Source: a virus (Duplodnaviria > Heunggongvirae > Uroviricota > Caudoviricetes). Taken from it: a stretch of 32,281 nt of DNA. The DNA lies in IMG/VR virus record IMGVR_UViG_2547132488_000023, positions 1 to 32,281 of that record. One strand, written 5' to 3'. A program made the translations under genes and the position numbers. Shown here one piece after another: positions 1 through 10,851 of the stretch; position 1 is the stretch's first letter; each line of letters starts with the position of its first letter. The notes beneath the pieces were generated by a model. It did not search any database and was not told where the DNA came from. It saw only the letters and a list, made by a program, of their open reading frames with translations.

Positions 1-996
1 TTATGGACGCATTATGGACATTCCTGACACCGGGTTAAGAGTCACAGCATCTTGTAAGAAATCCGGTGCAAAGTGTGCGTAGGTCATAGTTTGCTGAATG
101 TTAGAATGACCCAGGATGCGCTGCAATGTGATTATGTTACCTCCATTCATTATAAAATGTGTGGCAAATGTATGCCTCAAAACATGCACTGCCTGTCCGT
201 CAGGTAAATCGGGTTTTACTTCCCTGAGAGCGTTGCGCACTTTGTAGTAACTGGCATTAAAAAGCCTGCCTGAATTTTTGGTCTTGATCCGTTTAATCAG
301 GTCCTGCGAAACGGGAATTGTCCTGCGCTTTCCGTTTTTAGTTTTCATAAACGTAACCATCTGGTTAATGATGTGTTCAGCTTTCAAATTAGACACTTCA
401 CTCCAGCGTCCACCAGTAGAAAGGCAGACCAGAGTTGCATTTAACTCATCACCATCAAGCATGGATAACAGCCGCGTAATCTCTTCACTGGACAAAAAAG
501 CCATTTCAGTAACAGCTTCACGTAACCGCTTAACCTCACGGAACGGGTTGTGAGAGTGGTATTCACCGGCGTCAATTAACTTGGTGAACATCCCGCTCAT
601 TATTGCCAGATGCCGATTTACGCTGGCTGGTTTAAGACCATCGTTCATCATTACAACGCGATAATCAGTTATCGTTTTCTTTGTTAGCTGGTCAGCTCTG
701 GACACTCCCATTTCTGCAAATTTGGCGATTATTGTCGTCAAACGCCCCCGTTCAATATTTCCACGCTCATGTGATTTTCCGTGATATATCCACCATCTGC
801 CTAACAACTCTGTAAGAGTTCGGCGGTCGGCTGGCTTCTCCAGCCACTCTTTGTTGTGGTAGTTAACCAGCACATGACGTTCGAATGCTTGAGCTTCACC
901 TTTAATTTTAAATTTCCGCCTGATACGTTTTCCATCTGCACCCTGCGGTCTGACGTCCACTTCATAACGACCATCATCGAGCTTTTTAATAGACAT
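1..996 (-). CDS. int: Tyrosine site-specific integrase (P2 Int-like); stop codon is at window position 1-3
   Basis: 331 aa; C-terminal catalytic region HVLRHTFATHFIMNGGNIITLQRILGHSNIQQTMTYAH carries the R/H-x-x-R and Y hallmarks of tyrosine recombinases; lies at the prophage edge next to the repressor, as in P2. Confidence 0.9.
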   Translation of the reverse strand: MSIKKLDDGRYEVDVRPQGADGKRIRRKFKIKGEAQAFERHVLVNYHNKEWLEKPADRRTLTELLGRWWIYHGKSHERGNIERGRLTTIIAKFAEMGVSRADQLTKKTITDYRVVMMNDGLKPASVNRHLAIMSGMFTKLIDAGEYHSHNPFREVKRLREAVTEMAFLSSEEITRLLSMLDGDELNATLVCLSTGGRWSEVSNLKAEHIINQMVTFMKTKNGKRRTIPVSQDLIKRIKTKNSGRLFNASYYKVRNALREVKPDLPDGQAVHVLRHTFATHFIMNGGNIITLQRILGHSNIQQTMTYAHFAPDFLQDAVTLNPVSGMSIMRP

Positions 997-1854: not shown

Positions 1855-2035
1855 GGTGGAAAGGATGAATGAGCCGCGTTGTATTGCTCAGTTATTGCGT
1901 AACGAAAGCCCCAGGGCGATTGACTTCACCATCACCCACGGGAAGGGACGCAAGGGAATCATTATCCGCACCAAAAAACAGAGTCCGTTAAAAAAGGCTC
2001 TGACCTTTCTGAAAAGCCGGAGGGTATGGAAATGA
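1799..2035 (+). CDS. Hypothetical early protein (P2 orf78 position; 78 aa)
   Basis: 78-aa ORF between cox-like and B, same length and position as P2 orf78; overlaps the end of the cox-like ORF so true start is uncertain. Confidence 0.4.
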   Translation: MTGKIALVTANQDMAVRLKVERMNEPRCIAQLLRNESPRAIDFTITHGKGRKGIIIRTKKQSPLKKALTFLKSRRVWK

Positions 2036-2532
2036 CAGTGATGACGCTCAATCTCGTTGAAAAACAGCCAGCAACCATGCGTCGGATAATTGGTAAGCAT
2101 CTTGCCGTTCCTCGCTGGCAGGATACATGTGATTATTATAATCAGATGATGGAACGCGAACGGCTAACGGTTTGCTTTCATGCGCAGTTAAAACAGCGTC
2201 ACGCAACGATGCGTTTTGAAGAAATGAACGACGTCGAACGTGAACGGCTGGGTTGTGCAATTGATGAACTGCGTGGGGCATTCTCAAAACGCCGTCAGGT
2301 TGGCGCAAGTGAGTATGCATATATTAGTTTTTTAACAGTCAGTCAGCGTCGCACTTTATTTATGCACGCACGACTGACAGAAAAAGAATTCAACCAGCCA
2401 TACTGGCGAATTAATGAAGAATCATGTTACTGGCGTGATGCTTTATTCCGTGCATTACGTGAATTATTCAGTCTGTTTGAGTATGCACCGACAATTCTGA
2501 CGTCGGTAAAACCAGAGCAATATCTGCATTAA
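2026..2532 (+). CDS. B: Replication protein B (P2 gpB, helicase-loader-like)
   Basis: 168 aa; sequence MTVMTLNLVEKQP...SVKPEQYLH looks essentially identical to P2 B as I recall it. Confidence 0.8.
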   Translation: MEMTVMTLNLVEKQPATMRRIIGKHLAVPRWQDTCDYYNQMMERERLTVCFHAQLKQRHATMRFEEMNDVERERLGCAIDELRGAFSKRRQVGASEYAYISFLTVSQRRTLFMHARLTEKEFNQPYWRINEESCYWRDALFRALRELFSLFEYAPTILTSVKPEQYLH

Positions 2533-2562
2533 GTAATTAACCAGAGTTTTTAACGCACTTAA

Positions 2563-2820
2563 TTGTGCGGGGCTTCTTTTTGCCTGGAGAAAGTCATGCA
2601 TACAGTTTCTGAAAATCAGTGCGGTAAATACGCATTACTGCTGCAACAGGCCAGAACCGAAGCACAGGCCGACGCGGCGACGCGCTTTTCTTCTCATCTT
2701 GACGCCATGATTCGCCACATCACAAAGGCGGAGTTATCCCGCGTGGAGATAGTCGAGCTGCTCAGTCAGGAGTCGGAAAAATTTCACAATATCGGATTGT
2801 CTCGCGGGGAGGTGCTTTGA
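2563..2820 (+). CDS. Hypothetical early protein (P2 orf80 position)
   Basis: 85-aa ORF in conserved early operon position. Confidence 0.55.
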
Positions 2821-3122
2821 TGTCCTGTTCTCATTCAGTTGTATTACTGAATAACGCCTTAAAAATCGCCGTTATGAAAAATGGCGATTTGTCTCTTATT
2901 CAACTTGGTCTTGATAAAGAAAAACGCGACATAACTGAATCTGTAATCGCGATTTATCAGAATGAATTAAACCTCCTGTCTGATGTGGTCAATTTACTTG
3001 TTAAACGCGCTGTATTTCATAAGCAAATCTCCTCCGTGGATGAACTGACAAAATTAACGACAGAAATCGCCAGCTATTGCGCTGATGAATTTAAGAAGCT
3101 GAACGACAAAAGGAGCTGGTAA
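2817..3122 (+). CDS. Hypothetical early protein (P2 orf81 position)
   Basis: 101-aa ORF with ATGA-type overlap to neighbours. Confidence 0.55.
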
Positions 3123-3346
3123 TGCCGGACAACGTAGATTTTATTCAGGAACAACAGGCTGAATTACTGGAGCGCCAGATTAATGCGGCAAGGGTAAAAC
3201 ATTGCGGTGTTTCTTCGCTGGTTTGCGAAGAGTGTGATGCGCCAATACCTGCTGCCCGTCGTGCGGCTTATCCGTCAGTCACGCGTTGTGTTTCCTGTCA
3301 GTCAGTCTTTGAAGCAAAAAACAAGCATTACCGGAGAATGGCATGA
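3122..3346 (+). CDS. TraR/DksA-like C4 zinc-finger protein (P2 orf82 position)
   Basis: 74 aa with CEEC-x17-CVSC four-cysteine zinc-finger spacing typical of the TraR/DksA family. Confidence 0.65.
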   Translation: MPDNVDFIQEQQAELLERQINAARVKHCGVSSLVCEECDAPIPAARRAAYPSVTRCVSCQSVFEAKNKHYRRMA

Positions 3347-3624
3347 GCATTCGTATCGAGATTGGCGAGCGTTATGTAGTCACAAATGACCGTTTTCAGT
3401 TCATTTTGCAGGAGAGAAAGACCGCTGAAACCGGGAAGAATGCCGGTAAAGAGTGGCTGGATGTTGTCGGCTATTACCCCAAATTAAACCAGCTCGTTTC
3501 CGGTCTGATCCATCACGATATTTTGAGCGGTAACGCTGTCTCTTTTGAGGCGCTGAGCTCTCAGGTTGAGCAGCTCGGTCAGCAGTGTCTGACTGCGTTT
3601 CTCTGTGCGGGGAAATCTAAATGA
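3343..3624 (+). CDS. Hypothetical early protein (P2 orf83 position)
   Basis: 93-aa ORF immediately upstream of the inserted PP-loop gene, overlapping starts/stops. Confidence 0.55.
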   Translation: MSIRIEIGERYVVTNDRFQFILQERKTAETGKNAGKEWLDVVGYYPKLNQLVSGLIHHDILSGNAVSFEALSSQVEQLGQQCLTAFLCAGKSK

Positions 3625-4628
3625 TAGTTGATACCCGCTGCCGAGCTGAAAGCTCTATCAATATTATTTCTGTTTCTGGCGGAAAGGATAGCCTTGCTCA
3701 ATGGCTTGTTGGTATTGAAAGCGGTGTGCATTTTTTGCCGGTTTTTGCAGACACCGGGCATGAGCATCCGCAGACAATGGAGTATCTCGATTATCTGGAG
3801 AACCGACTCGGGCCGGTTAAACGGGTTAAAGCTGACTTCTCCCGACAGATTGAAGGTAAGCGCAAGTTTATTGCTGAGAAATGGCCTGTTTCTCTGGTTG
3901 AAGAGTGCGGAATGTCTCCAGGGGAAGCGGCAGAGCGCATCAATTGTGCGCTGGAAATTCTCAAGCCTACTGGTATCCCATTTCTTGATTTGTGCATGTG
4001 GAAAGGGCGATTTCCTTCCACTAAAGCCAGATTTTGCACTTTTGACCTTAAACATGAGCCAGTACGTACTCAGGTCGTGTTACCTGCGCTTAATGAGTTT
4101 GATGAGGTAATTAGCTGGCAGGGGGTTCGCGCTCAGGAGTCTCCTGCGCGCGCGGGTCTGCCTGCCTGGGAAGAGGATGCGGACAATACGCCCGGGCTCC
4201 ATGTATACCGTCCTATTCTGAACTGGACGCATGAGGAGGTATTTGCATTTGCAAGACGTCATGGAATTAAACCTAATCCGTTATACCAGCAGGGATGCAG
4301 TCGTGTCGGTTGTATGCCCTGCATCCACGCCAGAAAGTCTGAATTAGCTGAAATTTTTAGTAGCTGGCCGGAAGAGGTTAAGCGTGTTGCGGAATGGGAG
4401 CGACTTGTCGCCGCATGCTCCAGACGCGGAAATTCTACTTTCTTCCCGTCAACTCATGACCCGCGTCGTGCGGAACGCCGCATTGATATTATTACTGTCG
4501 ATGCTTACGGAATTGAGTCTTATCGTGACTGGGCGATGACCACGCGTGGCGGGGCACAGTTTGATTTGCTGGCTTCGGTGAATGATAAGTCAGTTTGCAG
4601 TAGTGTCTATGCCGGTGTATGTGAATGA
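3621..4628 (+). CDS. PAPS reductase-family (PP-loop ATP pyrophosphatase, DndC/CysH-like) protein; accessory moron in the early operon
   Basis: 335 aa; N-terminal PP-loop SVSGGKDS; C-terminal cysteine cluster CSRVGCMPC; ATGA overlaps with orf83 (3621-3624) and A (4625-4628); not part of canonical P2 backbone. Confidence 0.75.
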   Translation: MIVDTRCRAESSINIISVSGGKDSLAQWLVGIESGVHFLPVFADTGHEHPQTMEYLDYLENRLGPVKRVKADFSRQIEGKRKFIAEKWPVSLVEECGMSPGEAAERINCALEILKPTGIPFLDLCMWKGRFPSTKARFCTFDLKHEPVRTQVVLPALNEFDEVISWQGVRAQESPARAGLPAWEEDADNTPGLHVYRPILNWTHEEVFAFARRHGIKPNPLYQQGCSRVGCMPCIHARKSELAEIFSSWPEEVKRVAEWERLVAACSRRGNSTFFPSTHDPRRAERRIDIITVDAYGIESYRDWAMTTRGGAQFDLLASVNDKSVCSSVYAGVCE

Positions 4629-6901
4629 GTCATTCTTTCCAGGAGCAATACACCTGCGTACCTCCGTCAGCATTTGCTGCAGGCACCGGTAAGACGTTTA
4701 CCGGTGCTTATGCATGGAACGCGCCACGCGAGGCCGTCGGGCGCGAAAGACCCCTTACACGTGACGAGATGCGTCAGGTGCAAGGTGTTTTATCCACGAT
4801 TAACCGCCTGCCTTACTTTTTGCGCTCGCTGTTTACTTCACGCTATGACTACATCCGGCGCAATAAAAGCCCGGTGCACGGGTTTTATTTTCTCACATCC
4901 ACTTTTCAGCGTCGTTTATGGCCGCGCATTGAGCGTGTGAATCAGCGCCATGAAATGAACACCGACGCGTCGTTGCTGTTTCTGGCAGAGCGTGACCATT
5001 ATGCGCGTCTGCCGGGGATGAATGACAAGGAGCTGAAAAAGTTTGCCGCCCGTATCTCATCGCAGTTTTTCATGATGTATGAGGAACTCTGCGATGCCTG
5101 GGTGGATGCGCATGGCGAAAAAGAATCGCTGTTTACGGATGAGGCGCAGGCGCATCTGTATGGTCATGTTGCTGGCGCTGCACGTGCTTTCAATATTTCC
5201 CCGCTTTACTGGAAAAAATACCGTAAAGGACAGATGACCACGAGGCAGGCATATTCTGCCATTGCCCGTCTGTTTAACGATGAGTGGTGGACTCATCAGC
5301 TTAAAGGCCAGCGTATGCGCTGGCATGAAGCGTTACTGATAGCTGTCGGGGAGGTCAATAAAGACCGTTCTCCTTATGCCAGTAAACATGCCATTCGTGA
5401 TGTGCGTGCGCGCCGCCAGGCAAATCTGGAATTTCTTAAATCGTGTGACCTTGAAAACAGGGAAACCGGCGAGCGCATCGACCTTATCAGTAAGGTGATG
5501 GGCAGTATTTCTAATCCTGAAATTCGCCGGATGGAGCTGATGAACACCATTGCCGGTATTGAGCGTTACGCCGCCGCAGAGGGTGATGTGGGGATGTTTA
5601 TCACGCTGACCGCGCCGTCAAAGTATCACCCGACACGTCAGGTCGGAAAAGGCGAAAGTAAAACCGTTCAGCTTAATCACGGCTGGAACGATGAGGCATT
5701 TAATCCAAAGGATGCGCAGCGTTATCTCTGCCGTATCTGGAGCCTGATGCGCACGGCATTCAAGGATAATGATTTACAGGTCTACGGTTTGCGTGTCGTC
5801 GAGCCACACCACGACGGAACGCCGCACTGGCATATGATGCTTTTTTGTAATCCATGCCAGCGTAACCAGATTATCGAAATCATGCGTCGCTATGCGCTCA
5901 AAGAGGATAGTGACGAAAGAGGCGCTGCGCGAAACCGTTTTCAGGCAAAGCACCTTAACCGGGGCGGTGCTGCGGGATATATCGCGAAATACATCTCAAA
6001 AAACATCGACGGCTATGCACTGGATGGTCAGCTCGATAACGATACTGGCAGGCCGCTGAAAGATACTGCTGCGGCTGTTACCGCATGGGCGTCAACGTGG
6101 CGCATTCCGCAATTTAAAACGGTTGGCCTGCCGACAATGGGGGCTTACCGTGAACTACGCAAATTGCCTCACGGCGTCAGCATTGCTGATGAGTTTGACG
6201 AACGCGTCGAGGCTGCACGCGCCGCCGCAGACAGTGGTGATTTTGCGTTGTATATCAGCGCGCAGGGTGGGGCAAATGTCCCGCGCGATTGTCAGACTGT
6301 CAGGGTCGCCCGTAGCCCGTCGGATGACGTTAACGAGTATGAGGAAGAGGTCGAGAGAGTGGTCGGCATTTACGCGCCGCATCTCGGCGCGCGTCATATT
6401 CATATCACCAGAACGACGGACTGGCGCATTGTTCCGAAAGTTCCGGTCGTTGAGCCTTTGACTTTAAAAAGCGGCATCGCCGCGCCTCGGAGTCCTGTCA
6501 ATAACTGTGGAAAGCTCACCGGCGGTAATACTTCGTTACCGGTTCCCACGCCTTCTGAGCACGCCGCAGCAGTGCTAAATCTGGTTGATGACGGTGTTAT
6601 CAAATGGAATGAACCGGAGGTCGTGAGGGCGCTCAGGGGCGCATTAAAATACGACCTGAGAACGCCAAATCGTCAGCAAAGAAACGGAAGCCCGTTAAAA
6701 CCACATGAAATTGCACCATCGGCCAGACTGACCCGGTCGGAACGATTGCAAATCACCCGTATCCGCGTTGACCTTGCTCAGAACGGTATCAGGCCGCAGC
6801 GATGGGAGCTTGAGGCGCTGGCGCGTGGGGCAACTGTAAATTACGACGGGAGAAGCTTCAGTTATCCTGTTATATGTGATTGGAGAGCGTATGAATTATG
6901 A
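4625..6901 (+). CDS. A: Rolling-circle replication initiator A (HUH endonuclease; ori expected inside the gene)
   Basis: 758 aa; HUH motif HHDGTPHWHMM and tandem catalytic tyrosines in GYIAKYISKNIDGY; size and position match P2 gpA. Confidence 0.9.
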   Translation: MSHSFQEQYTCVPPSAFAAGTGKTFTGAYAWNAPREAVGRERPLTRDEMRQVQGVLSTINRLPYFLRSLFTSRYDYIRRNKSPVHGFYFLTSTFQRRLWPRIERVNQRHEMNTDASLLFLAERDHYARLPGMNDKELKKFAARISSQFFMMYEELCDAWVDAHGEKESLFTDEAQAHLYGHVAGAARAFNISPLYWKKYRKGQMTTRQAYSAIARLFNDEWWTHQLKGQRMRWHEALLIAVGEVNKDRSPYASKHAIRDVRARRQANLEFLKSCDLENRETGERIDLISKVMGSISNPEIRRMELMNTIAGIERYAAAEGDVGMFITLTAPSKYHPTRQVGKGESKTVQLNHGWNDEAFNPKDAQRYLCRIWSLMRTAFKDNDLQVYGLRVVEPHHDGTPHWHMMLFCNPCQRNQIIEIMRRYALKEDSDERGAARNRFQAKHLNRGGAAGYIAKYISKNIDGYALDGQLDNDTGRPLKDTAAAVTAWASTWRIPQFKTVGLPTMGAYRELRKLPHGVSIADEFDERVEAARAAADSGDFALYISAQGGANVPRDCQTVRVARSPSDDVNEYEEEVERVVGIYAPHLGARHIHITRTTDWRIVPKVPVVEPLTLKSGIAAPRSPVNNCGKLTGGNTSLPVPTPSEHAAAVLNLVDDGVIKWNEPEVVRALRGALKYDLRTPNRQQRNGSPLKPHEIAPSARLTRSERLQITRIRVDLAQNGIRPQRWELEALARGATVNYDGRSFSYPVICDWRAYEL

Positions 6902-6955
6902 GATTGTGATAAAAAGTAAATAATTAATATAATGCAATTGCTTGACTGTTTTAAA

Positions 6956-6986
6956 AGGGACAACGTAGTTGTGAACTATATTGTCC
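6956..6986. terminator. Hairpin (GGGACAA / TTGTCCC stem) between convergent A and putative endonuclease genes; possible bidirectional terminator
   Basis: 7-bp perfect inverted repeat 6956-6962 / 6980-6986 in the AT-rich 93-bp spacer between convergent stop codons. Confidence 0.4.
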
Positions 6987-6994
6987 CGGGAGTA

Positions 6995-8050
6995 TTAATT
7001 TTTAAATATGGATTGTATGTATTCTATAGTGCTATCTTTAGCTCTGATGTCTTTTAAAGTGTTATTTATGAAATCTATTATTCTGTCATTACTTAATAGT
7101 GGCGATAACGCATAACATGTTGTTGTGAATGTCATGACGTCACTAAAGCTTAGTGAAACACCTTTTGTCGCAGCGTTCTCAATCGCAATAGACTCATCAA
7201 TATCTAAGTTTGTTGCTCTTGGCCCTTTAAGGAAGATAACTTTTGAAATCCCGGATGCAGATGCTTTTGAAACGGCGTGATTAACATCTTGATAATTAAA
7301 TGGTTTGTCTTTCACTTCTATAGAAAGGAAAACTATATCATCATGATATACATCTATGTCCAGTATCTCTTTTGAGGAGCTACCGGCCTGATTGACGGGA
7401 TGTGCTTTTATTATCCATCCTCTTTGTTCACCTAATAAGTGTAGCGAAATTGCGGCAGCAATCGCGCATGTTTCTCCATCACAAGGATGAGATATAATAT
7501 TATAAATAATCTTATGGAAATCAAAATTAATTGAGTTCGGCGTTATAACTCTATTGGTTCGCTGTAGGGTAAAATATAATGCAATAACAAGCATTTCATA
7601 AGCTAAGGTTTGGGTTGTTGCTGCATGTAATATATCAATTGAAAGTTGTTGTAAAACCTTATCATTTCCTCTGCGCACAGGGTTATCAGAGGAGTGGAGC
7701 ATGTAACGAGCTGGTTTATTTAGAAATGGCTCATTTGATGCGCCTAACTTACCCTCTAAAAATGGGCCTTCTACTTTGCCTACTATTACCGAATGACATA
7801 AACTTCTTGCATCATAGGCTCCGTCTACGGGGGCATTAGCTTGTAAAGCCAGAGGGTTTACTCTAGGGTCTGTTGCTTTTGCAAGTAAACCAGTAATAAG
7901 TATATATCTGTATGTAAGGTGGGTGCCTAAAATTACATTTTGAATGGAGACCCATTGATTATTTGTTTTGTAATCAGTTAATTTTTTTGCATCGTTGATT
8001 GCATTTATAATTACATTATAGGCTTGCTCATGATTTACTAATACTTTCAT
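6995..8050 (-). CDS. Putative type II restriction endonuclease (family not recognised) of an R-M cassette
   Basis: 351 aa; start overlaps the last codons of the upstream HTH controller gene; divergent from a C5-MTase; candidate PD-(D/E)xK-like segment ILDIDVYHDDIVFLSIEVKDK; markedly AT-rich. Confidence 0.5.
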   Translation of the reverse strand: MKVLVNHEQAYNVIINAINDAKKLTDYKTNNQWVSIQNVILGTHLTYRYILITGLLAKATDPRVNPLALQANAPVDGAYDARSLCHSVIVGKVEGPFLEGKLGASNEPFLNKPARYMLHSSDNPVRRGNDKVLQQLSIDILHAATTQTLAYEMLVIALYFTLQRTNRVITPNSINFDFHKIIYNIISHPCDGETCAIAAAISLHLLGEQRGWIIKAHPVNQAGSSSKEILDIDVYHDDIVFLSIEVKDKPFNYQDVNHAVSKASASGISKVIFLKGPRATNLDIDESIAIENAATKGVSLSFSDVMTFTTTCYALSPLLSNDRIIDFINNTLKDIRAKDSTIEYIQSIFKN

Positions 8051-8342
8051 AGGTGTCCTTTAGTAAGATATCCATTGGTAGACCTAATCGGCTTGCAACC
8101 ACCTCTAATAATTCAAATAGTTCTAAAGCATCTAATCGCCTTTCAAAGCTTTCGATTTTAGATATATCTGATTGTGATAATCCTAGAAAAATGGCCAATT
8201 CTGACTGCGAAAGAGAAGCTTCTTTGCGTAGTTTGGTGAGAAGCTGGACTAGGCACCTGTATCTATGATCATGTATAGTTGGTTGTCGTTTTGCCATGTG
8301 GTTTAGAAGGTGATTGATTGTGTGTCGATCCTTACCTATCAT
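8028..8342 (-). CDS. Controller (C-protein-like) XRE-family HTH regulator of the R-M cassette; possible alternative start at 8297 (89 aa)
   Basis: 104-aa ORF with HTH SLSQSELAIFLGLSQSDISKIESFERR; immediately upstream of and overlapping the putative endonuclease gene, divergent from the MTase, as in PvuII-type C-controlled systems. Confidence 0.65.
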   Translation of the reverse strand: MIGKDRHTINHLLNHMAKRQPTIHDHRYRCLVQLLTKLRKEASLSQSELAIFLGLSQSDISKIESFERRLDALELFELLEVVASRLGLPMDILLKDTYESISKS

Positions 8343-9511
8343 TGGTTTTATTCCAAAATCGAATAATTGGTGCTAAAGAAGTGAACAAAATTTCAGCGGT
8401 GAGCTTATTTACTGGGGCAGGAGGGATGGATGTCGGTTTCTCTAATGCCGGGTTCCGAACAGTTTGGGCCAATGATATAGATAAGGATGCATGTGATACA
8501 TTTAAGCTTAATCATGAATCACCTGTTTTTTGTGGTGATATTGATGAGATGCTAAGTGAATTGTCTGGGCTGAAAAATATAGGTTGTGTTTTTGGTGGGC
8601 CTCCATGCCAAGGATTTTCTGTGGCAGGGAAAATGGACGCTCATGATCCACGTAGTAAGCTGGTTATGTCATTCATGCGGGCGGTGGATATAATTCAACC
8701 AGAATGCTTTGTTATGGAGAATGTTAAGGCTTTAGCACAGTTGTCCAAATTTGAACCAGTTAGGTGTGAACTGTTTAAGATGGCTGAAAAGTCAGGCTAT
8801 CGTTCAGCCTTGCTGGTGCTGAATTCTAAAGATTTTGGCGTTCCTCAGAATAGGGAACGTATGTTTTTTATAGGGTTTCGTTCCGAAAATGATGTGAAAC
8901 AAGTTGAGGTGGCGATAAAAAAATACCAATATCTTTCGCCCACAGTTGGTGAGATTATTCGGCCTTTAGGGCGAGCGGGTAATCCAAACAATTCAAGAGT
9001 CTGTAATGCAAGGATTACAAATGCTGCTAAGCCAGTATTACGGAAGTCACCTTACGCGGGAATGATGTTTAACGGGCAGGGAAGACCAATTAACCCGAAT
9101 GGGTATGCTTCAACTATAGCTGCTTCTATGGGGGGGAATAGGACACCAATTATTGATGAAGAACACCTTTATGATGGCTCAACAAGTTATGTTGAGACTT
9201 ATCATAATCATCTAATGAATGGTGGTGAGCCAAAAGATATGCACGATGTACCTAGTCGTTTACGTCGACTAACGATAGATGAGGCTCTTTTGATTCAAAC
9301 ATTCCCGAGTAATTATGTCTTTGTGGGGAAAAATTCGTCAATTTGGCGTCAGATAGGGAATGCTGTGCCTTGTAAATTGGCGCAGGCTGTTGCTGCAGGG
9401 GTTTTGGATGTCCTTACTGGAAAAACTATTAATGTTCAAAAGAGTCAAACAGAGTTGAGTTTGAATTCGAAAAACGGATCACATTTTCAAACCGATGGAT
9501 GCAGAATTTAA
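8318..9511 (+). CDS. DNA (cytosine-5) methyltransferase (Dcm-like); true start may be the in-frame GTG near 8381
   Basis: Motif I FTGAGGMDVGF, motif IV GGPPCQGFSVAGK, motif VI ENVKAL, motif VIII QNRERMFFIGF, motif X GNAVP; variable region between VIII and IX. Confidence 0.9.
   Translation: MCVDPYLSLVLFQNRIIGAKEVNKISAVSLFTGAGGMDVGFSNAGFRTVWANDIDKDACDTFKLNHESPVFCGDIDEMLSELSGLKNIGCVFGGPPCQGFSVAGKMDAHDPRSKLVMSFMRAVDIIQPECFVMENVKALAQLSKFEPVRCELFKMAEKSGYRSALLVLNSKDFGVPQNRERMFFIGFRSENDVKQVEVAIKKYQYLSPTVGEIIRPLGRAGNPNNSRVCNARITNAAKPVLRKSPYAGMMFNGQGRPINPNGYASTIAASMGGNRTPIIDEEHLYDGSTSYVETYHNHLMNGGEPKDMHDVPSRLRRLTIDEALLIQTFPSNYVFVGKNSSIWRQIGNAVPCKLAQAVAAGVLDVLTGKTINVQKSQTELSLNSKNGSHFQTDGCRI
8343..8380. 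promoter_or_regulatory. Divergent control region of the R-M cassette with palindrome TTATTC-N7-GAATAA (8348-8366); candidate C-box/operator
   Basis: Perfect 6-bp inverted repeat with 7-bp spacer between the divergent C-R and M genes; tandem GATT repeats just upstream at about 8310-8325. Confidence 0.35.
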
Positions 9512-9628
9512 CATTGCTGCATGAGTTTGCATCTTGAAATCATAAGTTGTACTGCTTGGCTTGACCAGAATTGATGTGGGTAAGAAGTGGTTATGCACCC
9601 GCATTAAAACCGACCCATGAAGCGGGCG

Positions 9629-9647
9629 GGCGAGGCGGGGAAAGCAC
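9629..9647. other. cos: cos site: 19-nt P2-type cohesive end GGCGAGGCGGGGAAAGCAC
   Basis: Exact 19-mer I recall as the P2/186 cohesive end, in the expected place between the old-locus equivalent and the portal gene. Confidence 0.7.
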
Positions 9648-9789
9648 TGCGCGCTGGCGGTGGTGCTGATTTTATTTTTTCAGCGTCTGAGCGCGTCGTG
9701 ATGGCGTTTAGTCGGCCTGCCGGGGCGTTGGTGTGTCTGCGGGGTGTTTTGTACAGTGGCGAACGTGTGAGGGCGTGATGACGGGGTGT

Positions 9790-9811
9790 AAAAAAGCCGC
9801 CCGCAGGCGGC
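9790..9811 (-). terminator. Rho-independent terminator downstream of portal gene Q
   Basis: GCCGCC-cgca-GGCGGC hairpin (9796-9811) followed on the minus strand by a U6 run (plus-strand AAAAAA 9790-9795), immediately after the Q stop. Confidence 0.55.
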
Positions 9812-9816
9812 GATGT

Positions 9817-10851
9817 TCAGCCGTTGTCAGTGTCCAGTGAGTAGTTTTTAAATCGGATGACCTCCTGACCGAGCCAGCCGTTTATCTCGCGGATCCTGTC
9901 CTGTAACGGGATAAGCTCATTGCGGACAAAGACCTTTGCTACTTTCTCAATATCGCCCAGCGACCCGACGTTCTCCGGTTTGCCGCCCATCAACTGAAAG
10001 GGGATGCGGTGCGCGTCCAGCAGGTCTGCGGCACTGGCTTTTTTGATATTAAAAAAATCGTCCTTCGTCGCCACTTCACTGAGCGGGATAATTTTAATGC
10101 CGTCGGCTTTTCCCTGCGGGGCATAGAGAAACAGGTTTTTAAAGTTGTTGCGGCCTTTCGATTTCACCATGTTTTCGCGAAGCATTTCGATATCGTTGCG
10201 ATCCTGCACGGCATCGGTGACGTACATGATGTATCCGGCATGTGCGCCGTTTTCGTAATACTTGCGGCGGAACAGCGTGGCCGACTCATTCAGCCAGGCA
10301 GAGTTAAGGGCGCTGAGATATTCCGGCAGGCCGTACAGCTCCTGATTAATATCCGGCTCCAGCAGGTGAAACACGGAGCCGGGCGCGAAAGGTGTCGGCT
10401 CGTTGAAGGACGGCACCCACCAGTAAACATCCTCTTCCACGCCACGGCGGGTATATTTTGCCGGTGAGGTTTCCAGTCTGATGACCTTACCGGTGGTGCT
10501 GTAACGCTTTTCCAGAAACGCATTACCGAACACCAGAAAATCCAGCACAAAGCGGCTGAAATCCTGCTGGGAAAGGCACGGGTGCGGGATAAACGTTGAA
10601 GCCAGAATATTACGTTTGACGTAAATCGGTGAGCTGTGATGCACGGCAGCACGCAGGCTTTTTGCCAGACCGGTAAAGCTGACCGGTGGCTCATACCATC
10701 TGCCGTTACTGATGCACTCGACGTAATCCAGAATGTCACGGCGGTCGAGTACCGGCACCGGCTCGCCAAAGGTGAATGCCTCCATTTTCGGGGCGCTGGC
10801 GGTCATTGTTTTTGCCGCAGGTCGCGGTGTTTTCCCTTTTTTCTTGCTCAT
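9817..10851 (-). CDS. Q: Portal protein (P2 gpQ)
   Basis: 344 aa, same length as P2 Q; first gene next to cos, transcribed leftward with P. Confidence 0.9.
   Translation of the reverse strand: MSKKKGKTPRPAAKTMTASAPKMEAFTFGEPVPVLDRRDILDYVECISNGRWYEPPVSFTGLAKSLRAAVHHSSPIYVKRNILASTFIPHPCLSQQDFSRFVLDFLVFGNAFLEKRYSTTGKVIRLETSPAKYTRRGVEEDVYWWVPSFNEPTPFAPGSVFHLLEPDINQELYGLPEYLSALNSAWLNESATLFRRKYYENGAHAGYIMYVTDAVQDRNDIEMLRENMVKSKGRNNFKNLFLYAPQGKADGIKIIPLSEVATKDDFFNIKKASAADLLDAHRIPFQLMGGKPENVGSLGDIEKVAKVFVRNELIPLQDRIREINGWLGQEVIRFKNYSLDTDNG

Follow-up and report, generated by a model that had tools for sequence, protein, structure and literature searches.

The EcoT38I restriction-modification cassette of a P2-like prophage and a conserved palindrome predicted to lie at its two divergent promoters

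In the EcoRV restriction-modification (R-M) system, a high-affinity site for the controller protein (C) activates c-res and at the same time lies across the strong met promoter (Semenova et al. 2005, cited through PMC6237814). Operators of the PvuII type are 35-bp double boxes in which GACT-N3-AGTC occurs twice, 15 bp from center to center and with a conserved GT spacer. The C mRNAs of systems of the PvuII, AhdI, and Esp1396I type are often leaderless, and an “SQE” patch of C proteins has been reported to contact region 4 of sigma-70. In Kpn2I, lower transcription of the methyltransferase (M) gene raises the overlapping divergent C promoters. The system most relevant here is EcoT38I. Its restriction endonuclease (R) and M genes are reportedly spaced by 330 nt and located between genes A and Q of P2, C is said to regulate R positively and M negatively, and the recognition sequence is reportedly GRGCY^C. 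EcoT38I comes from Escherichia coli TH38 and was described in a paper whose title names P2 (Kita, Kawakami, and Tanaka 2003, J Bacteriol 185:2296). A published table of its rare codons lists AUA at codon 15 of R and GGG at codons 12 and 15 of M. Sorokin et al. (2009) list C.EcoT38I among the C proteins for which they predict a site upstream, and also describe classes of motif that consist of a single palindrome.

The window considered here (the whole stretch of DNA that was analyzed, 32,281 nt) carries this system on a P2-like prophage. The R gene (minus strand, 6995..8050) is an open reading frame for a 351-aa SacI-family restriction endonuclease, R.EcoT38I (Pfam PF09566 RE_SacI, E=1.9e-76; named “restriction endonuclease, SacI family” in RefSeq). 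Its ATG at 8050 overlaps by 23 nt the 3′ end of the C gene (minus strand, 8028..8297, start ATG 8297), which encodes the 89-aa controller C.EcoT38I with a Pfam HTH_3 domain. The M gene (plus strand, 8381..9511, start GTG 8381) encodes M.EcoT38I, a C5 cytosine methyltransferase of 376 aa (Pfam PF00145, E=8e-67) that has only nine residues N-terminal to motif I and, based on Pfam and on comparison of start codons, lacks an HTH domain. From the start of R to the start of M there are 330 nt (8051–8380), the two genes being head-to-head with C in between, and the flanking genes, gpA (4625–6901) and the portal gene (9817–10851), place the cassette between genes A and Q of the P2 map. In its length, its HTH_3 domain, its co-orientation with R, and the 23-nt overlap, C has the profile of a controller protein, and this arrangement is kept in all close orthologs.

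The system is EcoT38I, because the location, the 330-nt spacing of R and M, and the rare-codon fingerprint all match. Codon 15 of R is ATA, and codons 12 and 15 of M are GGG if counted from GTG 8381, as the table for EcoT38I requires, whereas the positions disagree with the table if M is counted from TTG 8318. Two further rare glycine codons of M (GGA at codon 14 and GGG at codon 24) are absent from the published table, and the cassette in the window may be an EcoT38I allele with a small number of synonymous differences. The identification is also supported by the C protein, which is 100% identical to PDB 2EF8 along the entire 84-residue chain (C residues 6–89). We take 2EF8 to be C.EcoT38I; its record and one citing paper label the protein as an E. 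coli “putative transcription factor.” Compared with EcoT38I of E. coli TH38, we saw no substantive difference: C is identical, R belongs to the SacI family, M is a C5 enzyme, C overlaps R, and the insertion is between A and Q. The system, its controller, the crystal structure, and the regulatory role are all already published, and a binding site was predicted in 2009.

An R protein of the SacI family is compatible with GRGCYC specificity, given that GAGCTC is a subset of GRGCYC. The window contains three GRGCYC sites, versus 16–27 expected, but this scarcity is weakened as evidence of specificity because P2, which lacks the system, has none at all. These three sites (3555, 4194, and 24215) are the only ones in the window, and a methylation-sensitive promoter was rejected, there being no GRGCYC near the control region.

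Gene starts required some attention because the longest open reading frames overlap. As the sequence-only reading had pointed out, an ATG-initiated frame of 104 aa (minus strand, 8028..8342) and a TTG-initiated frame of 397 aa (plus strand, 8318..9511) share the 25 bp from 8318 to 8342, head-to-head. That reading preferred a C start at 8297 and an M start near 8381, separated by a divergent region of roughly 80 bp, and the orthologous cassettes agree with it. The minus-strand ATG of C (CAT at 8295–8297) is the Met at which conservation among orthologous C proteins begins (MAKR.PTIHDHRYRC), and upstream of it the extensions vary in sequence and length, with a TGA after five codons in L029 and AGG in place of ATG in L030 and L031. 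For M, GTG at 8381–8383, nine residues before FxGxGG, is the only start position common to all orthologs (it is ATG in L003, L025, L027, and L028), and it is the position that fits the published codon numbers. An in-frame stop occurs immediately upstream of it in L003, L025, and L029. A Shine-Dalgarno sequence, GGTG (plus strand, 8369..8372), precedes GTG 8381 by 8 nt, and its counterpart on the C-sense strand, CACC, is conserved in all orthologs. The divergent control region is thus 8298..8380, 83 bp between the start codons of C and M; orthologous spacers are 90–98 nt.

It is true that RefSeq annotation, which we compared in two E. coli records, has the overlapping long forms in one of them (both are called in the PGAP record NZ_CP075640), and that an ATG equivalent to 8342 is found in most close orthologs. 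That both long proteins are genuine nevertheless appears highly improbable. PGAP calls the 89-aa C in NCTC9088, the stops directly upstream of the M start argue against a 397-aa M, and the start codons of the long forms would lie upstream of their own predicted transcription starts (ATG 8342 for C–R, TTG 8318 for M). Because orthologous cassettes do not conserve the N-terminal extensions, in sequence, length, or frame, we regard these as noncoding, and the long overlapping frames are most likely artifacts of reading frames that simply stay open upstream of the true starts. The practical value of the comparison is for annotation, as it settles where the two genes start (C at 8297, M at 8381). 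The peptides specific to the long forms are MIGKDRHTINHLLNH and LCVDPYLSLVLFQNRIIGAKE. Incidentally, C forms of several other lengths are present in protein databases.

The control region holds a perfect 6+7+6 inverted repeat (8348..8366), made up of TTATTC (8348–8353), CAAAATC, and GAATAA (8361–8366). By within-window statistics alone it is unremarkable: allowing at most one mismatch, TATTC-N7-GAATA occurs twice in the window against an expectation of 0.56, a result equaled in 14 of 100 shuffles. It is conservation that makes the palindrome significant. Across eight orthologous control regions, 16 of the 19 palindrome columns are invariant (the invariant core is 8349–8364), and no other element of the control region is strongly conserved. 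The corresponding counts are 17 of 83 for the remaining intergenic columns and 25 of 48 for the coding flanks, and the observed invariant run was reached in none of 100,000 column shuffles. Symmetric changes are seen on both arms. The outer base covaries (TTATTC..GAATAA vs. ATATTC..GAATAT), and in L004 and L006 the inner T/G pairs with A/C (TATGC..GCATA). The palindrome is also found upstream of C homologs with 43%–58% identity from unrelated bacteria (Thalassospira, Legionellales, Bryobacteraceae, and Thiotrichaceae), with the consensus TAT[T/G]C-[G/C]A[A/T]TTT[G/C]-G[A/C]ATA, and all of these distant homologs except L005 face a divergent C5 methyltransferase. Because the palindrome is conserved, family-wide, and has arms that change symmetrically, it most likely binds a C dimer (one dimer at the predicted site). 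The window holds what is typical of controllers, a dyad upstream of the controller's own gene that overlaps a predicted promoter.

Of the two candidate operators named in the sequence-only reading, only the palindrome stands. The other, a two-copy GATT repeat (GATTGATT; plus strand, 8312..8319), overlaps the −35 hexamer (TTGATT) of one M promoter candidate, and was rejected as an operator because it is not conserved in orthologs and does not match the family-site matrix. In the suggested comparison with known C-boxes, the dyad, a single TATTC-N7-GAATA, is not a 35-bp double C-box of the PvuII type. With a matrix derived from 12 sites of the family, we found no second, weaker operator in the window or in close orthologs (the best second score was <0); in L004, L005, and L006 a weaker second site lies 15 bp from the main one. 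The exact 17-mer was matched 26 times in viral contigs, 12 of which carry the cassette. Because the other 14 have no C gene, the 17-mer sequence alone is not diagnostic of the system.

Position-specific promoter scoring predicts a C–R promoter on the minus strand, with its −35 hexamer (TTGGAA, 8351..8356) in that arm of the palindrome which is nearer to C, its −10 hexamer (AAGGAT, 8328..8333) 17 nt away, and a start near 8321. The same scoring finds TTGGAA-17/18-nAnnAT at this place in all eight orthologs, and TTGG[A/C]A-17..19-nAnnAT across close orthologs and most distant homologs (L008 was unscored, and L007 has a poor hexamer). None of the columns for the A, A, and T of nAnnAT varies, and an invariant AGG (8335–8337) puts a G at −14. 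For M, two alternative promoters are predicted in the window. Candidate (a), TTGATT-17-TATCAT (plus strand, 8314..8342), was identified by consensus scan and scores higher than any other promoter in the region; it would start near 8349, placing the palindrome at approximately +1 to +18, and its position is kept in L003, L025, L029, and L030 and is weaker or absent in L027 and L028. Candidate (b) has CAAAAT at the palindrome center as its −10 (plus strand, 8354..8359), a weak −35 (TTACCT, 8332–8337), and a start near 8366. Its geometry is near-consensus in other members of the family (TTGACT-17-CAAATT-7-ATG of M in L033 and L034; TTGACA-18-CAAAAT in L006). The M and C–R promoters are thus predicted, from their sequences, to overlap at the palindrome.

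The predicted C leader is ∼24 nt long and has no Shine-Dalgarno sequence, and six of the first 25 C codons are rare. From the palindrome center to the C start codon there are 60 nt in the window and 37–39 nt in five homologs, the latter being a leaderless geometry. A leaderless C mRNA was rejected for the window itself, where no −10-like hexamer is found 7–12 nt upstream of ATG 8297 and nAnnAT is 31–36 nt upstream. Residues S30 and Q31 of C are invariant, and those that follow vary (SQSE in the window; SQNF, SQSI, and SQRD in homologs).

The best explanation, and one that we consider probable, is an EcoT38I-type switch in which one C dimer on a single palindrome acts on two overlapping divergent promoters. 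M, transcribed rightward toward its start at 8381, would diverge from the C–R operon (8297 to 6995), with one dimer of C on 8348–8366. The A/T-rich palindrome center (CAAAAT) and/or the sequence that precedes it would supply the M promoter with its −10/+1 region, and the C-proximal arm would be the −35 of a weak C–R promoter. Upon entry into a new cell, M would be made first, from the stronger promoter, and C would build up slowly owing to its short leader and its rare early codons. Once on the palindrome, C would cover the M promoter, and less M would be made. The accompanying increase in C–R could be direct, with C, an activator of the class-II or OL-like kind centered near −36 to −38, standing in for −35 recognition, or it could arise because C removes the competing RNA polymerase of the M promoter; we lean slightly toward direct activation. 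The comparison shows the gene starts, how conserved and symmetric the palindrome is, and its constant placement relative to promoter-like hexamers. Binding by C, the points at which transcription begins, and the direction in which C–R responds are inferred, that direction being the one which the 2003 abstract reportedly gives.

Other readings of the palindrome have to be weighed against this switch. One is that it is conserved merely because it contains core promoter hexamers (the M −10 and the C–R −35), and is not a protein-binding operator. The CAAAAT center and the TTGGAA arm do correspond to promoter elements, and the central T-tract always has the same orientation with respect to the genes. 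Yet the M-proximal arm, TATTC, is invariant although it has no promoter role for C–R, different lineages show symmetric changes of the two arms, and a dyad with 12-bp half-site spacing suits an HTH dimer. In addition, an independent motif search also picked a C.EcoT38I site. We therefore think it very unlikely that promoter hexamers are the whole explanation. Scarcely credible is the idea that the inverted repeat works at the RNA level, as an attenuator or terminator hairpin of the M leader, or that the methyltransferase itself binds it. The repeat would fall in the M 5′ leader if transcription starts near 8349, but the RNA fold of 8340–8385 is −4 kcal/mol (z=0.30, with 117 of 200 shuffles folding as well), no terminator-like site was found, and M has neither an HTH domain nor more than its nine residues before motif I.

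If the palindrome is an operator, C might still be a pure repressor at this single site, blocking the M promoter along with its own −35, with R increasing only indirectly through relief of competition or occlusion, as in systems of the Kpn2I or SsoII/Ecl18kI type. Kpn2I provides a precedent, the palindrome covers the predicted C–R −35 (the place of the repressing OR in PvuII), and the sigma-contact SQE patch is not clearly conserved. Moreover, the embedded −35 of L005 and L006 is near-consensus (TTGGCA) and would need little activation. Against this, C sitting on the −35 would also bar ordinary use of the C–R promoter, so that competition relief alone cannot account for a net rise. A G that never varies at −14, together with a poor −10, suits a promoter that is activator dependent and −35 independent, and OL of PvuII and MuC likewise abut or overlap the −35 of promoters that they activate. 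On balance, we consider pure repression unlikely, although it deserves to be taken seriously, and retain the switch in which C both lowers M and raises C–R.

With this switch in mind, the cassette can be set beside the other described systems. As in EcoRV, M diverges from the C–R operon and the predicted C site is on the M promoter, where one binding event would lower M and raise C–R; unlike EcoRV, which combines a high-affinity distal site with a low-affinity proximal site that represses later, the window has one detectable site. A tblastn search of C against plasmids returned one weak match and no link to EcoRV-type systems. As in PvuII, AhdI, and Esp1396I, C is a small Xre-type HTH dimer whose gene is upstream of, and cotranscribed with, R, and the predicted operator is within its own weak promoter, touching the −35. 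Protein similarity is marginal (E=0.046 to C.AhdI and E=0.015 to C.BclI), and whereas PvuII-type boxes end 17–18 nt before the ATG, the dyad in the window is centered 60 nt from it. Overlapping divergent promoters, in which silencing of the strong M promoter lifts the opposite one, are a feature shared with Kpn2I and SsoII/Ecl18kI. However, the Kpn2I site works as a roadblock within the C coding sequence, and the SsoII-type regulator is a domain of M, neither of which holds for this cassette. The single detectable site contrasts with every experimentally studied C system.

The scientific weight of these observations is small, given how much of the system was already described. The geometry in which a single dyad is operator, M −10, and C–R −35 may be undescribed, and, with confidence that falls somewhat short of even, we tentatively suggest that EcoT38I-type controllers constitute a distinct minimal C-box class, in which TAT[T/G]C-N7-G[A/C]ATA would be at once the operator, the M −10 (in its center), and the C–R −35 (in its arm). 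The family-wide geometry offers a simple, testable model of a single-site controller that switches two genes. If the class is real, a single dimer would flip a bidirectional promoter pair without a second repressing site. Both mRNAs would then be leaderless in distant members, where the ATG of M is 7 nt past the central −10 and the ATG of C is 37–39 nt from the dyad center.

The longest reading frames of the two divergent genes at this locus, both identified from the ORF list and Pfam, are those of the HTH_3 controller C (104 aa from an ATG, 8342 to 8028, minus strand) and the C5 cytosine methyltransferase M (397 aa from a TTG, 8318 to 9511, plus strand). They overlap head-to-head over 8318-8342. 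This 25-bp overlap, which the sequence-only reading had judged implausible, is borne out by the sequence and the ORF list. In-frame alternatives are present at ATG 8297 for C and GTG 8381 for M, and the gap between them, expected to be about 80 bp, measures 83 bp. We found 15 homologues of C, fetched the loci of nine, and added loci from a genome scan. Conservation of the C protein starts at MAKR.PTIHDHRYRC, whereas the extensions upstream of this Met are unrelated in sequence and unequal in length among orthologues, several of which are annotated from exactly this residue (89 aa). In the DNA, the reading frame from the upstream ATG is closed by a TGA after five codons in the Enterobacter ludwigii locus (L029), and AGG replaces this ATG in two other close-orthologue loci (L030 and L031). 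The position of GTG 8381, nine residues before FxGxGG, is the sole start codon common to all close orthologues of M (ATG in L003, L025, L027, and L028), lies 8 nt after a conserved GGTG (8369-8372), and is directly preceded by a stop codon in L003, L025, and L029. Both proposed starts are thus upheld. The third gene, R, encodes a SacI-family restriction endonuclease of 351 aa (8050 to 6995, minus strand; Pfam PF09566, E=1.9e-76), and its start shares 23 nt with the end of C.

Database annotation of these starts is inconsistent. RefSeq/PGAP gives an overlapping 104-aa C (2629-2943) and 397-aa M with a TTG start (2919-4112) in NZ_CP075640 and an 89-aa C (1629-1898) in NZ_LR134226, and C is also deposited in protein databases as 69-, 73-, 82-, and 83-aa versions. 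Part of the remaining value of the comparison lies in a clear correction of these start sites.

PDB 2EF8, an E. coli entry labelled “putative transcription factor” that we take to be C.EcoT38I, matches the 89-aa C at 100% identity along its entire chain. The EcoT38I system reportedly has the specificity GRGCY^C, with R and M head-to-head, 330 nt apart, and the C gene between them, overlapping R. C is said to be positive for R and negative for M, and the entire cassette is said to have its insertion site between genes A and Q of P2. In the window, exactly 330 nt (8051-8380) separate the R and M starts. The rare codons tabulated in the literature for EcoT38I are AUA(15) for R and GGG(12,15) for M; R codon 15 is ATA in the window, and M codons 12 and 15 are GGG if translation starts at GTG 8381, with no fit to TTG 8318. 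Because of the C identity, the spacing, and the rare-codon fit, we take the locus to be EcoT38I or an allele nearly identical to it. The title of Kita et al. 2003, as it appears in reference lists, mentions both P2 and EcoT38I. Cloning, assays, and crystallisation of the system date back years, and an operator had already been predicted for it; the earlier observation was real and its interpretation essentially right.

Within the control region, TTATTC (8348-8353) and GAATAA (8361-8366), separated by 7 nt, form a perfect inverted repeat, which had been put forward as a candidate C operator. The frequency of this palindrome within the window alone is not beyond chance, so its weight rests on comparison with other sequences. 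In an alignment of eight orthologous control regions (Escherichia, Citrobacter, Enterobacter, Yersinia, and three uncultured sources), the block ATTCGATTTTGGAATA (8364 to 8349, C-sense strand) is invariant. Invariant columns make up 16 of the 19 in the palindrome, versus 17 of 83 in the remaining intergenic sequence and 25 of 48 in the coding flanks, and none of 100,000 column shuffles (0/100000) reaches so long an invariant run. The outermost pair co-varies on both arms (TTATTC..GAATAA in Escherichia, Citrobacter, and Enterobacter vs. ATATTC..GAATAT in Yersinia and the close-orthologue locus L028). The same dyad lies upstream of C in homologues with only 43-58% C identity (Thalassospira, Legionellales, Robiginitomaculum, Bryobacteraceae, Thiotrichaceae, and other metagenomic bins); except in L005, it is flanked there by C on one side and a divergent C5 methyltransferase on the other. 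The family consensus is TAT[T/G]C-[G/C]A[A/T]TTT[G/C]-G[A/C]ATA, the inner T/G pairing with A/C in some distant homologues. Conservation and symmetric arm changes support the candidate operator: the dyad bears the signature of a dimeric HTH operator, from which we infer binding by C, and this predicted operator accompanies the C gene rather than P2. In Sorokin et al. (2009), C.EcoT38I is already one of the C proteins for which an upstream site is predicted, and some of the motif classes described there consist of a single palindrome. A direct repeat, ATCATTGGT / ATAATTGGT (8338-8346 and 8363-8371, 25 nt apart), flanks the dyad; it is not obviously conserved among orthologues and is probably due to chance.

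The suggestion that GATT repeats also serve as operator elements found no such support. The repeat GATTGATT (8312-8319) is not conserved in the orthologue alignment and overlaps TTGATT, which is the -35 of the predicted M-sense promoter that scores best; a position matrix derived from 12 family sites gives no second dyad match in the window or in the close orthologues, and the enterobacterial cassettes have no detectable second, repressing site. A weaker second copy does occur in three distant homologues, at -47 (L004), -54 (L005), and -23 (L006) relative to the C start, each 15 bp from the main dyad with one arm in common; the OL-OR centre-to-centre distance of PvuII-type C-boxes is also 15 bp.

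The predicted C-R promoter (minus strand) has its -35, TTGGAA (8356 to 8351), inside the C-proximal dyad arm and its -10, AAGGAT (8333 to 8328), 17 nt farther on; promoter scoring puts the pair in the same position in every one of the eight orthologues. Within this set the A, A, and T of nAnnAT never vary, nor does the AGG immediately upstream (G at -14), and TTG[G/C][A/C]A-17..19-nAnnAT is present in most of the distant homologues scored. Transcription would start at ~8321, giving a leader of ~24 nt. Five of the distant homologues have their C start codon 37-39 nt from the dyad centre, which would imply a leaderless C mRNA from this predicted promoter. For M (plus strand), the best-scoring candidate, TTGATT-17-TATCAT (8314-8342), would start at ~8349 and place the dyad at +1 to +18. 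The other, TTACCT-16-CAAAAT (8332-8359), has its -10 at the dyad centre; it is weak in the window and near-consensus in L006 (TTGACA-18-CAAAAT) and in the distant metagenomic homologues L033/L034 (TTGACT-17-CAAATT, then 7 nt, then the M ATG), the last geometry implying, if the prediction holds, a leaderless methyltransferase mRNA. The dyad centre precedes the C reference codon by 55 nt in L033/L034. With either candidate, the predicted M and C-R promoters overlap and the dyad lies on both.

Several other explanations of the repeat were weighed and rejected. An RNA hairpin is not indicated, as the fold is not significant (z=0.30), and no terminator was predicted. The methyltransferase as binder is disfavored because M lacks an HTH domain and has just nine residues ahead of motif I, and methylation sensing is excluded because there is no GRGCYC site near the control region. 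Conservation for the promoter hexamers alone would fit the central T-tract, whose orientation is fixed across the family because the hexamers are embedded in the dyad, but it leaves the invariant M-proximal arm and the symmetric changes unexplained.

A C dimer on 8348-8366 would necessarily interfere with the M promoter, occluding its -10 or its +1 to +18 region, in agreement with the negative effect on M that C is said to have. Relative to the predicted C-R start, the dyad is centred near -36 (near -37 to -39 in homologues with the leaderless geometry), and it therefore overlaps the C-R -35. The positive effect on R that C is said to have could arise by two routes. C may act directly as an OL-like or class II activator that takes over the role of -35 recognition, comparable to PvuII, where OL abuts the -35 of the activated promoter, and to MuC, which overlaps the -35 of the promoter that it activates. 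Alternatively, C may clear RNA polymerase off the stronger overlapping M promoter, a relief of competition that has been demonstrated for Kpn2I and described for EcoRV. The poor C-R -10 and the invariant G at -14 speak for direct action, as does the consideration that bound C would otherwise also block its own promoter; however, the SQE patch, reported to contact sigma-70 region 4 in C proteins, is not clearly conserved across this family. On balance we lean slightly toward direct activation. Slow accumulation of C is plausible, because there is no Shine-Dalgarno sequence upstream of ATG 8297 and six of the first 25 codons (8223-8297) are rare (CGA4, ATA8, AGA12, AGG14, CTA16, and CTA23). The other part of the value is a concise model, open to testing, in which a single-site controller would occupy a bidirectional promoter pair.

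According to the ORF list, the cassette is flanked by P2-type replication gene A (4625-6901) and portal gene Q (9817-10851). The corresponding interval in phage P2 (window 6902-9816 vs. 30316-33593 of the P2 reference), likewise bounded by gene A and cos/Q, is filled by orf91, tin, and old. GRGCYC, the reported EcoT38I recognition sequence, is strongly depleted, with three sites in the window (3555, 4194, and 24215) versus 27.5 +/- 5.9 in shuffles or 16.5 under a Markov-3 model. P2, which is without this R-M system, has 0 sites versus 14.5 expected; avoidance therefore belongs to the P2 lineage and is not peculiar to this prophage. The same cassette is present in 20 complete E. coli genomes at 99.4-99.7% identity or better, adjoins ogr at the prophage-host junction in Yersinia (L025/L026), and is not within any phage in Enterobacter ludwigii. 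The final ~60 nt of the 6900-9650 query (~9587-9650) match cos-proximal ends of P2-like phages. In strain NCTC9088 (NZ_LR134226; locus positions 2027-3072) the methyltransferase is annotated as frameshifted and the endonuclease is intact, and in a viral contig (L077, 3997-6504) M matches in two pieces and R in three; decay of these copies or sequencing error may account for this.
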